Origin: Microcoleus sp.
Lineage (GTDB): Bacteria > Cyanobacteriota > Cyanobacteriia > Cyanobacteriales > Microcoleaceae
Direction of reading: 5' to 3'
Assembly (NCBI GenBank): GCA_042408215.1
Contig: JAYFMW010000006.1
Coordinates: 160,001 to 224,000, forward strand
Length of the DNA: 64,000 nucleotides
The notes under the pieces: generated by a model
What the model saw: the letters and a program-made list of their open reading frames with translations, nothing else
Told to the model about the DNA's origin: nothing
Databases searched by the model: none
In this document: in pieces, positions 46,449 through 52,394 of the stretch
How positions within the stretch are numbered: the first letter of the stretch is position 1
Layout of the letters: each line of letters starts with the position of its first letter
Made by a program: the position numbers and the translations under genes

Positions 46449-48533
46449 ATGGCGGTATCTTTTTTTGTATTGCCCCAAATTATCCTACTGTCAGGTCAAT
46501 CTTTTGACCAGTGGATTTTGGGTTTGGGGCTGATAATTTTGACTGTTATTTTTGGTCTAACAACTTTTATTTTTATTCGGATTTTCATCAATTGGTTGCA
46601 GGCGATAGCGGAGCCAAAGCGCCAACTCGCCAAAAACAGGGCGATCGCCGAAAATGACGGCTATTCAACTAATCCTATTTCAGGGGATAAAAGCGCTATC
46701 TTAGAACCGGTGTTCGTAGAAAGTGACGGGGATTTAACTACTTCTCTTTTTGGGGATCAAACCGATGTTGCAGAAGTAATTCAGCAGCCGATAATAATCT
46801 GCGAAGATCCCGTTGCACTTGCTCAGCTTTATCAGCCGATCGCTCTTTGGCAAGGACGCTTAATTTTGCCGACCGACGACCAGCGAAAACCCTACGGTTC
46901 GGTGTTTTTGCAAGTGATAAATACACCTAAAAAATATCGAAAATTAATCGGAAAAACTGCGACATTAAACTTTAGCACTCACCGCAAAAATCAGTTTTTT
47001 GTCCACGCTGTTACCCAAGATATCAAGTTCACCAAACAAACTGAAAACAGTAAAAAATCCGGTAACATCCATCCCGATAGATTGAAGGGCTGGCGCAAGG
47101 TCGGCCCTTTAGAAACTCTAGCAGGGAGTAGACTCGAAGACAGCGTGACAGTGATGCTGCGGCGGCCAGTCAATGTGATAAATTATGGCAGTAGCGATCG
47201 CCATGAATTAATACTCGATCGAGAACCAGTACAAATTACAGGAAGTTGGTGTGCCCTCGTCTCAATTTTACAGCGACAAGAACCGGAGAGCGACAAATTT
47301 ATTGTCCGCCATTTCAACAAAACATCTCAACAATTTGACGGGCTAGCTGAAATAATTAGGATTCCGCAAGTCAAGCCAGACAAAAATGGCGTAGCGAGGT
47401 CTACAAATTACCTCATAGAAAAATCGCCATTAAATCCAGACGGCTGGTACATTTACGGCGAAAAAGGCGAAGACAATATTTTTAGAGTCCAAGCAATCGA
47501 GCCCCGAAAAATTGCCCAATTAATCCCAGATGAAACACATTTGGGACTGAAAAAATGTCTCGATTATTTAAACTGCGAAAATTGGCAAAATACACCGAGT
47601 CAAAAAGGGCAAGCAAAAATAGTCTTATTATCGCCTTCGGAAGAACCAGAAAACGCATACATCTCTCCTTGGGAAGAAGGAGACATCGGCATAGTGATTC
47701 ACTGTTTCGGCGGGATTGGCGGCAAAAAAGCAGAACCCGCACCGCTGGGAATTGTCACCGGACATTTTGCTTTGGGAATAGCAAAAGTAGTGCGCGATCG
47801 CTTTACCGGCGAACTGCGTTTTGATATAGAATACAAACAAGTGTACGCCCACAATCCCGATGGAATTGTCGCCGGATCGAGCAAATGGCAAAGTTACATG
47901 GGAGACTTGGAGCGCGGCTTGTTGGGCGATCGCCCGGTTTGCGATATCATTTGTAAATTAGATTGCGTGTGTCGTGACTACAACTTTGACGGCATCCAAT
48001 TGTCGCCCTTAGACGAATTAAACCAGCAATTAGATATTATGATGGCCCGTTACCGCAGCGGAGACGGTACCGGAGCAAGTTTAGTCACCCCTGCGACTTC
48101 CTGCGTCCAAGATTCCAGTCAGGCAATTTACGCTACCATTAAAAAAATCACTTCAGAAATTGAATCAAATCCTCAGATTCAAGAATGGCTAAAAACCCAT
48201 CCCACCGACGCACAAACTCAAAGATTTCACCAGTTAGTAGCTTTAGGACAAAGTTTAGAAAAAGTATTAATTCCCCTGGGCATTGTCCGTCCAGATTGGC
48301 GCAAAAATGCTAAATTAGCGGGGATTGATTCCCACCTCAAACCAAGTTTATTTGCGATGATAGCTAACCCCATAACAGCGGCTATTAGCTACCGAACAAT
48401 GCTACCCAGACGCACTCAAGATGCCATAGCCAAAATTTTCTTAAAACAGGGAGCATTTTTGTGGGTAATTCGGACAAATCAAGTCGGGGGATTTGATGCA
48501 AATATTGAGCCGATCGCACCTACAAGACTTTGA
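46449..48533 (+). CDS. Membrane-anchored cyanobacterial protein resembling the large soluble domain seen with Abi/CPBP-annotated proteins
   Basis: N-terminal TM; VGPLETLAGSR, HCFGGIGG, TGHFALG, YAHNPDGI, MMARYRSGDGTG, SCVQDS, RTNQVGG. Confidence 0.65.
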   Translation: MAVSFFVLPQIILLSGQSFDQWILGLGLIILTVIFGLTTFIFIRIFINWLQAIAEPKRQLAKNRAIAENDGYSTNPISGDKSAILEPVFVESDGDLTTSLFGDQTDVAEVIQQPIIICEDPVALAQLYQPIALWQGRLILPTDDQRKPYGSVFLQVINTPKKYRKLIGKTATLNFSTHRKNQFFVHAVTQDIKFTKQTENSKKSGNIHPDRLKGWRKVGPLETLAGSRLEDSVTVMLRRPVNVINYGSSDRHELILDREPVQITGSWCALVSILQRQEPESDKFIVRHFNKTSQQFDGLAEIIRIPQVKPDKNGVARSTNYLIEKSPLNPDGWYIYGEKGEDNIFRVQAIEPRKIAQLIPDETHLGLKKCLDYLNCENWQNTPSQKGQAKIVLLSPSEEPENAYISPWEEGDIGIVIHCFGGIGGKKAEPAPLGIVTGHFALGIAKVVRDRFTGELRFDIEYKQVYAHNPDGIVAGSSKWQSYMGDLERGLLGDRPVCDIICKLDCVCRDYNFDGIQLSPLDELNQQLDIMMARYRSGDGTGASLVTPATSCVQDSSQAIYATIKKITSEIESNPQIQEWLKTHPTDAQTQRFHQLVALGQSLEKVLIPLGIVRPDWRKNAKLAGIDSHLKPSLFAMIANPITAAISYRTMLPRRTQDAIAKIFLKQGAFLWVIRTNQVGGFDANIEPIAPTRL

Positions 48534-48534
48534 G

Positions 48535-48762
48535 GCATGGGGCATGGGGCATGGGGCATGGGGCATGGGGCATGGGGCATGGGGCATGGGGCATGGGGCA
48601 TGGGGCATGGGGCATGGGGCATTGGGCATTGGGCATTGGGCATGGGGCATTGGGCATTGGGCATGGGGCATTGGGCATGGGGAATCGGGAATTTGGAATC
48701 GGAAGCCCCAAGCGAATAACCAATAACCAATAACCAATAACCAATAACCAATAACCAATAAC
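48535..48762. repeat. STRR arrays (CATGGGG)n, (CATTGGG)n and (TAACCAA)n between convergent genes
   Basis: Visible tandem heptamers. Confidence 0.95.
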
Positions 48763-48765
48763 AAT

Positions 48766-49965
48766 TTACCAAGGACTCACTTGAACAGTGCCGCCTGGTG
48801 CAAAAACTACCCGGAAATCAGCCAGCGGTTCCGCAGATGGCCTGCTACCCACAGGCTTGTAAAGCAACTCAGAGAAAAGTGTATCCCCGATGCGATCGAC
48901 TGTTTGAGAATTCTCTGACTTGTAACCGACAATCGCACCGTCTTTAGCCACGCTTACCCGATAAATCAACTCCCCATTAACAGCAGACTGATTCTTCAAA
49001 ACTCCGTCAATTTGCTCGGAAAGCTTTCCCCTCAACAGCTCAATTTCCGCTGGATCGGTAATCGCGACAGCTACCCCCGAACTCTGCAAACCTTCAGAAA
49101 CAGGTGTGGGAGTAACCGACGGCGAAGCATCAGCAGCCGGAGTTGGACTCGAAGTTTGACTGGGAGTTTGACTGGGAGTTTGACTGGGAGTTTGACTGGG
49201 AGTTTGACTGGGAGTTGGCGCAGGCGATATAGCCGACTGAGTACGATCGCCCGGTAGCAAACCGTCAGCCGCCGGCGTTGGATTGGGATTCGGTGTCCCC
49301 GCACCCGGATTCGGCGTGTCGATATTCTGGCCCGTAGTATTGGGTTGACGAATCGGATCTCTGGGGCGCTGGACTTCCGGCACCGGCACCAAGAAAAACG
49401 CCATCGCAGCCAAAGCTAAACTCGACACCCCTATTACCCCTGGTAAAGCCCGCTGGGCTACCGGTTCGGCTGACTTGATATAACGCTTGGACACTGGAGT
49501 TAATTGCAGTGATAACTCTGGTAACGTTTGCGTGTCGGCAAAAAATTGGTCGATCGCCTCCACTAAGTCAAATAGCTGTACCGTCGTTAAATCAACCTCT
49601 GCCGAGAATTGGGTTTTTTCGGCGATTTGGACTCCGCTGTCTGATGAAGCGGGTAGAATCGTCAACCGGTGCGTATTCCCGTCAATTCTGTGCAACTGCA
49701 CCAAGCCCGAATCATGGTCCTGGCGATCGGGATAATGGACTCCGCTCATAAATTCTTGAGCGTAGCTGCTGACAACCCTCACCAAGCTTTCAAAAAAATC
49801 CCTTCCCCCAGTTAGGGGCTCGGCGAGACTGCTCAAATAGCATTCAGCGCTCATTAGTATCGAAAGCACCGGCCGTTTTTCTAACTGGCTGGCTGCTGAG
49901 CCATCGCTTAACCCTTCGAGAACCAGGGTGCAATTTGGCAAACTGTACTGACGCCTAATAGTCAT
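48766..49965 (-). CDS. DUF4335 domain protein
   Basis: MTIRRQYSLPNCTLVLEGL, LTTVQLFDLVEAIDQF, one TM segment, (PSQT)n linker. Confidence 0.85.
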   Translation of the reverse strand: MTIRRQYSLPNCTLVLEGLSDGSAASQLEKRPVLSILMSAECYLSSLAEPLTGGRDFFESLVRVVSSYAQEFMSGVHYPDRQDHDSGLVQLHRIDGNTHRLTILPASSDSGVQIAEKTQFSAEVDLTTVQLFDLVEAIDQFFADTQTLPELSLQLTPVSKRYIKSAEPVAQRALPGVIGVSSLALAAMAFFLVPVPEVQRPRDPIRQPNTTGQNIDTPNPGAGTPNPNPTPAADGLLPGDRTQSAISPAPTPSQTPSQTPSQTPSQTPSQTSSPTPAADASPSVTPTPVSEGLQSSGVAVAITDPAEIELLRGKLSEQIDGVLKNQSAVNGELIYRVSVAKDGAIVGYKSENSQTVDRIGDTLFSELLYKPVGSRPSAEPLADFRVVFAPGGTVQVSPW

Positions 49966-50399
49966 AAAAAAGTTCGGTAAGTGGGAAACGAGCGAGTCTT
50001 TAGACCTGAGAGGGAAACGACGCGGGTGGTTTTAACCACCGTGAATCTTTTTTCCATTACCGCCTTGGAATTGCTTGACGGGAGTGTACTTTTGTAATGC
50101 ACTTTCGATGGGACAATTACCATTTCAAGCCTTGCAATCCTGTACGCATAATGGTTGCCTTTGTTGGGCCTCCCTTGCGGGGTAAAGTTCGCTTCGTCAA
50201 TGTTATTTGGGCTTGTTAAGGTAGTAGCACTATAAAGCGTGACTTTAGAATTGTTTAACTAATACCGACAGAGCAAGAAACTAGCGTCGCATTTCAGGGT
50301 GTCGTGACCCAAATAACGTAGCCAATTAAGGCTTAGACTGGTCAGGATAGCTCACAATTTCTTGCAAGCTCAGTGGCGTTGACTCCCTGAGTTCCTGAC
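49966..50399 (-). mobile_element. Non-autonomous HEARO/omegaRNA (IscB-type IS200/IS605) element 1
   Basis: Minus strand begins GTCAGGAACTCAG, contains TGACCAGTCTAAG, CTACGTTATT, GACACC...ATGCG..GCTAG...GCTCTGTCG, TTAAAC, AACATTGACGAAGC; ends in a hairpin-rich end followed by ATGA; no intact ORF. Confidence 0.85.
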
Positions 50400-51005
50400 T
50401 TACTCAACCTCTCCATCAAACAGGCTAACCCAGAAGCGCTGCATTCCGGCAGTGCCTGTACAAAATAGCAGTTTGCTCAATAAGTTCAAAGCTAGTTCAT
50501 CGAGCTTGTCGTCGGAGTCGTAAGCTGCTACTAGCGATCGCTTGGGGTTCATGCGCGATCGAAAGTGAGCTCGAAAGCGTTCTAAATACTCGGCCAGCGG
50601 TAAGTGCTGGTTGAAGGGGATATTTCTCGATCGCGACTGCTGGGAGTCTTGCAGCAACTGGCGAATTGTCGCTGTTAGCTTGCGCGCCAAATTGCAGGCG
50701 ATCGCCACCAGCGCTTTTGCCTCCAGCGCGGTGAGGGAGCGACGCTGGGTATAGCGACGCAGCGGGTTAGTATTACGCAGCAGCCAAAGGGCAACCCGAT
50801 TTTTGATAATTGATTCCAATTCTAGTTCCTTTGACACTGCCAGCATTTCTTCAGCACCTCCGAGATACAAGGCTTCGATCGCCAACAACATCAGGTCAAT
50901 TTGCAATCTGGCGCGACGGGGACATCCGTCATCGGAGGGCGACAAATCTGGCAAACTGTCTAAAATCAACGGGTTTGACTCGGTAAGCGAAGTTTCTAAC
51001 GGCAT
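50400..51005 (-). CDS. DUF3038 domain protein
   Basis: IDLMLLAIEAL, IKNRVALWLLRNTNPLRR, LLFCTGTAGMQRFWVSLFDGE; start uncertain (51005, possibly up to 51077). Confidence 0.85.
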   Translation of the reverse strand: MPLETSLTESNPLILDSLPDLSPSDDGCPRRARLQIDLMLLAIEALYLGGAEEMLAVSKELELESIIKNRVALWLLRNTNPLRRYTQRRSLTALEAKALVAIACNLARKLTATIRQLLQDSQQSRSRNIPFNQHLPLAEYLERFRAHFRSRMNPKRSLVAAYDSDDKLDELALNLLSKLLFCTGTAGMQRFWVSLFDGEVE

Positions 51006-51112
51006 TACGATCACGGCAACATATATTCCAAAAAAACTATACGGACACAGAGGGGCTCCAGCATGAGAAATTCTCAACCAAGGACTCCTCTGAGATACTT
51101 GATTTTTATCAT

Positions 51113-51487
51113 CCGAAAATTGGGCGGAGCGTAGCGGAGGGTTGAAACCCCGTCCTTTTAGGACGGCTTTGCTTGATTTGATAAATTAGTTGCCTACCTC
51201 TTGCTAGGTGGAGGGGTATGGTTACCCCCTCCCTTGGAGATCTGGTTGTCGACCGCCCCTTTCGGGTGATGTTAGCGCGCGCCTTTGTTATAAGAGCTTT
51301 TTAAACCTGCAACACTGTTCCAGTGACTTTAGAACTGTTTAATTACAGACGACAGAGCCCAAAACTAGCTTCGCATTCAAGGAGTGTCGTGACTCAAATA
51401 ACGGAGTCAGTGAAGACTTAGGCTGGTCAGTACAGCTTGCTTCGATCGCTCTAACAAGCTCAGTCCCTTTAGGGCTGAGTTACTGAC
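51113..51487 (-). mobile_element. Non-autonomous HEARO/omegaRNA (IscB-type IS200/IS605) element 2
   Basis: Minus strand begins GTCAGTAACTCAG, colinear with element 1 over about 230 nt; ends CCGTCCTAAAAGGACGGGGTTTCAACCC...AATTTTCGG then ATGA. Confidence 0.85.
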
Positions 51488-51565: not shown

Positions 51566-52075
51566 TCAATGTCCTTGATGCTCCTGTTTCGTCACCACTA
51601 CTCTTTGGGCCGTAAAATCAGTAGCCGCGGCATTCTCAACCAGACTAATTTTTCCTTTCAAGCTTTCTCCCTCCACAATTCCTCGCAGTTTCACCACACT
51701 CTTTTGACTACCGCTGCTTGTTGACTCGCCGCAACCTGTTAAATTGGGAACCACACCGGATAAATTCAACCCTTGAATTTCCCACTTGCCAATTAGAGAA
51801 GGTTTCTCCTCAGCAGTTTTTTTGCCATCCACAGGGCTGTTGTCTGACTTCAAATTACCGCTCAAATAAACCCCTGATTGCTCAATTGTCAACACCAACG
51901 AGTCAGATTTCAAACATTCTGGCCAATTTTGAGCATCAAAGCGATAACTTCCGGCAATTGCAGGAGCAGCTTTCAAATTTGTTTCGCCGTAGGCAGTTAC
52001 TACCTTAAAAAGTACGGCAACGAAGGCTATCGCAATTCCGTAAAATGCCAATGACTTGAGGTTGAAATGACTCAT
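51566..52075 (-). CDS. Hypothetical membrane-anchored protein downstream of the antiporter
   Basis: Start [16 protein letters not shown] after discarding the STRR-encoded extension; one TM segment; [10 protein letters not shown]. Confidence 0.75.
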
Positions 52076-52079
52076 AATT

Positions 52080-52394
52080 TTGGGAATGGGGAATGGGGAA
52101 TGGGGAATGGGGAATGGGGAATGGGGAATGGGGAATGGGGAATTGGGAATGGGGAATTGGGAATTGGGAATTGGGAATTGGGAATTGGGAATGGGGAATG
52201 GGGAATTGGGAATTGGGAATTGGGAATTGGGAATGGGGAATTGGGAATGGGGAATTGGGAATTGGTAGCAACTCACAAATAACCAATAACAAATAACCAA
52301 TAACAACAGTCAACTAACAACAGTCAACTAACAACAGTCAACTAACAACAGCCAACAGTCAACTGTCAACAGTTAACAGTCAACTGTCAACTAA
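52080..52394. repeat. Compound STRR arrays (GGGAAT(G/T), AATAAC(C/A), AACAGTCAACT)
   Basis: Visible tandem 7- and 14-mers. Confidence 0.95.

Follow-up and report, generated by a model that had tools for sequence, protein, structure and literature searches.

The 64,000-nt stretch of Microcoleus sp. DNA analysed here (the window; G000:C6:160001-224000, from a 7.36-Mb genome in 30 contigs) contains a protein-less element of 434 nt lying exactly between the stop codon of a DUF3038 gene and the start codon of a DUF4335 gene. We think it likely that this is a non-autonomous IscB (ISC)-type IS200/IS605 element, moved and retained with TnpA and IscB supplied in trans. The element class and its N|ATGA target are already known and the junction is explained by the known target rule; the open interest lies in a bias with which such elements dock at start codons, and in a portable RNA module, M1, that occupies the place of the lost open reading frame.

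Organization of the locus

Direct reading of the sequence agrees with the layout given in the preliminary description: on the minus strand DUF3038 ends GAG TAA at 50400, a 434-nt insert opens with GTCAG, and ATGACT, the start of DUF4335, lies at 49965, with both genes recognized by Pfam. Its assignment of the insert to the HEARO/omegaRNA family is supported by a covariance search, in which RF02033 matches 50182-50399 over its full length with 140.5 bits against a cut-off of 83; the model ends at 50182, and M1 lies outside it. The parts of the locus are as follows.

49966-50399, minus strand: protein-less IS200/IS605 (ISC-type, PATE-like) element, 434 nt, with ends fixed by the empty allele of X11 and X14 and by sister copies
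50182-50399, minus strand: HEARO/omegaRNA scaffold (RF02033) including the transposon right end, with 5' GTCA, a hairpin at 50391-50369 and the DNA-guide tetranucleotide CAAG at 50365-50368 (plus strand)
50168-50181, minus strand: 3' hairpin and purine run, common to iscB-bearing copies, where iscB begins shortly after; homology breakpoint with the C23 copy
50053-50156, minus strand: M1 module, a structured RNA of ~104 nt in the ORF position, which includes the frame at 50149-50117 that was earlier called a stub
49966-50049, minus strand: transposon left end, with two hairpin-plus-GTTTCCC units and a U-rich tip; DNA-guide GAAA at 49985-49988 (plus strand)
49962-49965, minus strand: target/TAM ATGA, which is the DUF4335 start codon (N|ATGA target as in Kapitonov 2016)
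50400-50415, minus strand: predicted guide, the last codons and stop of DUF3038, positioned by the IscB rule and containing a Shine-Dalgarno site at 50414-50407
50400-51077, minus strand: DUF3038 gene (PF11237), start codon uncertain
48766-49965, minus strand: DUF4335 gene (PF14233), start matching relatives
51113-51487, minus strand: second protein-less HEARO element, 375 nt, with a middle cassette M2 and another left end (RF02033, 126.9 bits); precise empty site in G005

No open reading frame of at least 60 aa is present within the 434-nt element and the RRXRR profile has no match there. It carries the sequence-level features of non-autonomous ISC / IS200-IS605 PATEs and is classed as one on that basis. 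A MITE was considered and rejected, the termini being GTCAG and TTTTTT and a target-site duplication being absent. A promoter scan was uninformative: its single match (9/12) falls within the scaffold at 50257-50229, and no terminator turned up on the strand of the element.

The element is a mosaic. Its first 231 nt, the scaffold, are identical to an iscB-bearing copy at G000:C23:24418, the middle is as in C5:490873, and the distal left end is as in C8:73201 and C23, with the 84 nt of the left end identical to G000:C8:73201-73284. This make-up suggests cassette exchange between copies at common breakpoints. At G000:C8:71500-73284 the identical left end abuts an ARMT1-like start codon and is joined with a serine-recombinase/tnpB pair, IS607-like and located on the opposite strand.

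The second HEARO element lies within the DUF3038 leader in the same orientation, 690 nt from the first, and its M2 cassette, present 22 times in the genome, contains hairpins with a repeated CAACCAUA loop. Two elements of the same orientation thus flank DUF3038, and composite movement would be possible in principle. Elsewhere in the window, short tandem repeat arrays with 7-nt units (48441-48772 and 52005-52313) give rise to spurious low-complexity ORFs.

Filled and empty alleles

In contigs of X11 (a DNA run) and X14 (an RNA library) position 49965 is connected directly to 50400, so that exactly 434 nt are skipped; the joint is unambiguous, with 255 nt on either side and flanks 97-99% identical to the window. 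Contigs of the DNA run X5 cross both filled junctions. The anticipated TAA|ATGA junction, lacking spacer and duplication, therefore exists as an exact joint in DNA, seen only in near-identical strains (~97-99%). More distant species differ: at 29 loci in relatives, TAA and ATG are separated by 2-3 nt in 27 cases and overlap as TAATG in one, and the remaining locus, in G008, is filled by the element. A repeat of the comparison gave a like picture, with G005 filled and three overlaps. The G008 copy has no mismatches over ~240 nt of the element apart from a 25-nt insert, and its flanks are 94% identical; a DUF3038 match is absent from this genome, which is 83% complete. As G008 is filled with flanks at 94% and X11/X14 are empty at 97-99%, presence does not follow flank divergence, and the pattern would fit horizontal spread, repeated insertion or precise loss alike. 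The second element is separately polymorphic, with G005 empty and X11 retaining at least its left end.

The X14 contig that covers the locus is the empty allele, and contigs carry neither strand nor level. Because this contig derives from an RNA library and skips exactly the 434 nt, it could also be read as IStron-like splicing of the element from the mRNA, which would restore DUF3038-DUF4335 coupling and return a strong Shine-Dalgarno site; the presence of M1 in group II introns (see below) points the same way. We regard such removal at the RNA level as very improbable, however, given that the same joint is found in the DNA run X11, that the flanks of the X14 contig show 18 differences from the window, which makes it the empty allele of another strain, and that none of the group I and II intron models has a match in the element. 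IStrons (PMC4227781, PMC13565253) resemble the element in combining an IS200/IS605-type DNA element with an extra structured RNA inside host transcripts; an IStron was nonetheless rejected, as no group I intron core was matched in the element. In the X14 and X16 RNA libraries element contigs are deeper than host-gene contigs, but these contigs pool all copies and cannot rank expression.

The HEARO family and its candidate helpers

The genome contains 70 HEARO matches, 64 of them above the cut-off, together with 31 RRXRR and 20 Y1 transposase profile matches. Both ends were mapped for 46 HEARO elements (42 protein-less and four with iscB); the counts exclude the remaining 24 of the 70 matches, which have no mapped end and are for the most part iscB elements whose ends differ. 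ATGA follows 42 of 45 mapped left ends, the TEM TGAC occurs with CAAG in 39 of 45 copies, and GAAA is found 14-21 nt inside TCAT in 40 of 45. DNA-guide tetranucleotides pair with TAM and TEM by a set rule, which those of most copies fit.

The trans-encoded IscB that the preliminary description invoked has candidates in this genome, where both an intact IscB (NF040563, 468 bits) and a Y1 TnpA (NF033573) are present. RuvC and HNH motifs are found in about 11 of 16 long IscB frames. An intact IscB on contig C8 (423 aa, NF040563, HNH) shares the end type, and its scaffold, ~81% identical, is the closest beside an intact iscB. The tnpA/tnpB elements of C13 and C30 have an intact-looking Y1 TnpA, the same left end as the 434-nt element and an ATGA target. 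The copy on C23 (G000:C23:22798-24418, L118) is an iscB element before the start codon of a response-regulator gene, and its iscB is broken in the assembly by 23-27 extra-base and 0-3 missing-base events, which looks more like long-read or assembly error than decay; no close intact orthologue of it was found in 79 genomes of the genus. On the same contig rpsL also appears split.

Four composite elements (G000:C28:196605, C30:557465, C4:3521 and C30:230698) carry an extra 98-nt unit, which has a frame of ~33 codons whose stop seems to be the TGA within the outer ATGA; the tip of the unit often carries GAGG.

Docking at start codons

In 35 of the 46 mapped HEARO elements (76%) the ATGA opens a host gene, 32 of these genes having a Pfam family; among them are those for ribosomal S16 (rpsP) and L19 (rplS), EF-G, signal peptidase, PetL, PetM and Psb27. 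The other 11 copies sit away from start codons. With genes called by a home-made gene caller, starts make up 14.7% of all ATGA sites that are non-coding or at a start. Their share rises to 40% for sites within 200 nt of a same-strand start and to 53% for those within 100 nt, both still lower than the observed 76% (binomial p=7e-7 and 0.001). The 434-nt element is the only one of 45 copies to touch an upstream stop codon, a consequence of the zero spacer at the operon junction into which it is inserted. M1-bearing elements of other genomes, where an end could be mapped, open a long frame in 46 of 66 cases, several of these being orthologous sites.

A control family is provided by nine protein-less copies derived from the C13/C30 tnpA/tnpB element, which share the left end and target but have a TnpB-type end; only two of the nine are at starts, against 35 of 46 for HEARO (Fisher p=0.004). 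In a wider control set, non-HEARO, mostly TnpB/TnpA-type elements with an ATGA target, four of the 23 being without confirmed TnpB type, are at starts in 6/23 cases versus 35/46 (p=1e-4), and adding eight unclassifiable remnants gives 13/31 (p=0.004). With the most cautious scoring, in which the four composites are placed at their inner end, the comparison becomes 32/46 versus 13/31 (p=0.02). One left-end match, C16:20046, was dropped, its ATGA not being adjacent.

No description of the docking of IscB-type but not TnpB-type elements at start codons was found in the literature searched, which included few subscription papers. The difference between the two types serves as a within-genome control for the idea of retention where the host supplies the guide. 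The simplest cause of the docking would be that IscB elements, as already published, depend on host transcription, together with selection against in-gene insertions.

An account without IscB, in which the element is a passive PATE moved by TnpA, its omegaRNA is an unused relic, and docking reflects purged in-gene insertions or TnpA access to transcribed DNA, seems to us unlikely. The TnpB-type PATEs that share its left end and target are at starts in 2/9 cases, near the 14.7% baseline, and the HEARO and M1 structures are kept in protein-less copies across many genera. Passive behaviour would nevertheless accord with a scaffold whose identity to the omegaRNAs of intact iscB copies reaches only ~81%, and with a filled/empty polymorphism that can arise by excision or repeated insertion alone.

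Bare left-end tips are found at G000:C6:923549, C20:689447, C7:260397 and C14:104257, before hisG, GH57, SET-domain and dehydrogenase genes. At the GH57 site related genomes hold a whole HEARO-M1 element, so decay may leave the tip as a new leader.

The predicted guide and translation of DUF4335

The predicted guide, whose length we take to be about 16 nt, is formed by the end of DUF3038. In the empty allele the Shine-Dalgarno site for DUF4335 lies within the last DUF3038 codons and hence inside this predicted guide, and the element does, as had been proposed, remove the initiation context of DUF4335: the Shine-Dalgarno duplex is -7.1 kcal/mol in the empty allele versus +0.1 in the filled one. 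A replacement Shine-Dalgarno site from the element was rejected, with +0.1 kcal/mol here and a site of -4.4 kcal/mol or stronger supplied by the left end in just one of 31 copies, versus seven of the 31 displaced flanks; about a quarter of 300 sampled genome starts have such a site. Accessibility of the start region is unchanged (0.52 versus 0.50, p=0.46). Coupling through an element ORF that ends on the TGA of the ATGA was also rejected as a general mechanism: sister copies have 1-85 open codons in this frame, and neither iscB nor tnpA ends on that TGA. The 434-nt copy has 98 open codons in the TGA-ending frame, with an ATG at 50123 giving 53 codons, and coupling is possible for this copy. 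The likeliest route is initiation of DUF4335 without a Shine-Dalgarno site. More generally, the docked copies raise the question of how essential genes are translated after 350-500 nt have been wedged between the ribosome-binding region and the start codon.

A different view is that the host has adopted M1 or the left end as a 5' region that regulates in cis, or enhances the translation of, DUF4335 and the other downstream genes. The copies that precede rpsP, rplS, EF-G, signal peptidase, petL and petM (by Pfam) are in keeping with this, as are an insertion before the GH57 gene that persists in several members of the genus and bare left-end remnants that open genes at seven of eight unclassified sites. 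We nonetheless consider an adopted leader improbable: the site is polymorphic among near-identical strains, the downstream genes have no common function, M1 also occurs inside group II introns with no gene following, and the left end supplies a Shine-Dalgarno site less often than the flanks it displaces.

There is no perfect guide-plus-ATGA site of at least 10 nt in the genome that would lead to self-targeting. The best off-site match to the guide lies within a gene on C26 (minus strand, position 209727 of the reversed contig), with two mismatches in 16, one of them 3 nt from the TAM, followed by ATGA; it is probably due to chance.

Proposed mechanism and relation to known systems

In the mechanism that we favour, with TnpA and IscB in trans, a Y1 transposase from elsewhere would move the element by peel-and-paste into N|ATGA sites, the ends and target being those observed. 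Read-through from DUF3038 to DUF4335 would yield an omegaRNA with the end of DUF3038 as its 5' guide, IscB would load this RNA in trans and cut the empty allele, in which ATGA comes directly after the guide sequence; with the filled allele as template, repair would then restore or spread the element. We lean towards this succession of operon-derived omegaRNA, cleavage by a trans IscB and spread through repair as a probable one. Gathering at starts could arise because no other kind of site combines transcription in the right direction with an intact host reading frame as often as an ATGA start does. DUF4335 would be translated without Shine-Dalgarno site and coupling, probably starting from the U-rich tip of the element, and cutting out of the guide would leave the DUF3038 mRNA without a stop codon. 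Stand-alone omegaRNAs have reportedly (Altae-Tran, in 2021) been seen acting in trans. The site offers a natural pair of filled and empty alleles in near-identical strains, and with it a direct test of trans homing by a protein-less omegaRNA.

Three features count against the use of IscB here. The scaffold closest to the element beside an intact iscB is that on C8, at ~81% identity; the iscB next to the 100% identical scaffold is broken as assembled; and the Geobacillus IscB, as tested in the published work covered, needs TTCAT, i.e. ATGAA, where the sequence here is ATGAC.

ISC transposons are described as inserting at N|ATGA, an example being ISC1-1_MA of Microcystis aeruginosa (Kapitonov, Makarova, Koonin 2016, PMC4810608). 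As characterized in that paper they resemble the 434-nt element in the 5' GTCA terminus, insertion before ATGA without target duplication, a left end common to TnpB-bearing IS605 elements, and a Y1 transposase acting in trans; they differ in that the 434-nt element is without iscB and has a structured RNA in the ORF position. The phrases 'start codon' and 'translation' have no occurrences in the main text of that paper.

That the guide of IscB must come from a host transcript is a published rule (Meers et al., bioRxiv 10.1101/2023.03.14.532601), and the idea of a guide taken from the host transcript is therefore not new. The ISGst5 element of Geobacillus and its protein-less PATEs, as presented by Meers et al., share with our element a right-end HEARO, a guide from the host flank, the need for host transcription, protein-less derivatives, a TAM that equals the insertion motif, and cut-and-copy retention. 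They differ in having a 5-nt TAM (TTCAT) and in a reported orientation bias of upstream genes; the text covered mentions neither start-codon docking nor an ORF-replacing RNA module.

The M1 module

An iscB stub was earlier proposed to remain within the element. A frame of ten codons plus stop does exist at 50149-50117, but it lies inside M1 and is unrelated to iscB: sister copies have anything between 4 and 34 codons in its place, its ATG forms part of a helix in the M1 RNA, and in GTCAG-type copies iscB starts MSNF.., unlike this frame. An iscB deletion derivative was likewise rejected, as the M1 profile and covariance model match 22 places in the genome and none in an iscB gene. In locus L198, M1 is followed by the last codons of iscB, as expected if M1 replaced the gene. 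Judged from these sequences, iscB has not merely been deleted but replaced by M1.

The fold of M1 consists of a closing stem, a conserved internal loop, a long stem and a three-way junction with two hairpins whose loops kiss. Compensatory change is seen in 16 of 26 nested pairs among 57 sequences, a count that relatedness inflates and that none of 500 shuffles equals; many G-U pairs point to the sense strand. The alignment used (A1) comprises 56 of 58 stretches and the window, with L157 omitted for an insertion and L162 because it equals the window, and its columns 48-78 were set by the search pattern, so that invariance there is circular. For the kissing pair a second alignment (A2) was used, with 30 more divergent rows that were picked for divergence and fitted to the model. 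Covariation is seen there in 23 of 29 pairs, again with inflation by relatedness, and the loop-loop pair changes without exception from U-A (25) to C-G (5). Folded as a single sequence, M1 does no better than shuffles (z +0.18 and -0.46), and it is thus covariation on which the structure rests.

Rfam gives nothing for M1 on the element strand besides HEARO at E up to 10, and nothing in six further loci at E up to 1. There is likewise no Rfam ribozyme match, and the junction, compared by eye with the consensus of the hammerhead core, lacks that core.

A degenerate 31-nt core of M1 is found exactly in at least 114 genome stretches (80 of them fetched) from Microcoleus, Scytonema, Nostoc, Dolichospermum, Calothrix, Tolypothrix, Spirulina and other genera. 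HEARO lies directly upstream of M1 in 64 of the 70 loci with enough flank, in all 20 of the loci checked by Rfam, and in 64 of 69 metagenome or viral loci. The M1 model has matches in 21 of 151 phylum genomes and 34 of 151 order genomes, as well as three in viral contigs, all with HEARO upstream by profile, and one in plasmids.

M1 is not confined to HEARO scaffolds. It also follows another scaffold that elsewhere precedes RRXRR proteins of 344 aa without HNH, i.e. of IsrB type, and in one locus (L367) it precedes a TnpB-type right end. In group II introns it occurs with no ORF between M1 and domain V (L449, L452, L457) and, in L455, inside domain VI. The ORF-less TeI3 group II introns of Thermosynechococcus (Mohr et al. 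2010, PMC2882425) are similarly protein-less derivatives served in trans, and are reported to have a covarying DIVa1-DIVa2 loop-loop pairing that resembles the M1 kissing loops. The paper, in contrast, treats this structure as what a deletion has left of domain IV of the intron itself. A kissing-loop module that replaces the lost ORF in several unrelated mobile RNAs was not found described in the literature searched, whose figures and supplements may already show M1.

As to function, M1 might stabilise the untranslated RNA or mark the site at which it is cut out of host mRNA, a suggestion that we offer tentatively. Equally speculative is a broader scheme in which M1 would be a portable 'ORF-replacement' domain taken up by unrelated parasites as they lose their protein gene, in which it would either capture a protein made in trans or protect the RNA or cut it out, in the latter case perhaps acting as a self-cleaving ribozyme of a new kind; IscB-type mini-elements with M1 might then turn host ribosome-binding regions into guides and spread between lineages by start-codon homing.

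Divergent M1 copies are present at L453:1501-1602 and L456:676-778, and the host sequence in L453 looks like an interrupted group II intron. A degraded HEARO-plus-M1 element full of small repeats, missed by the Rfam search of the genome, lies at G000:C6:981325-981696 (L134).
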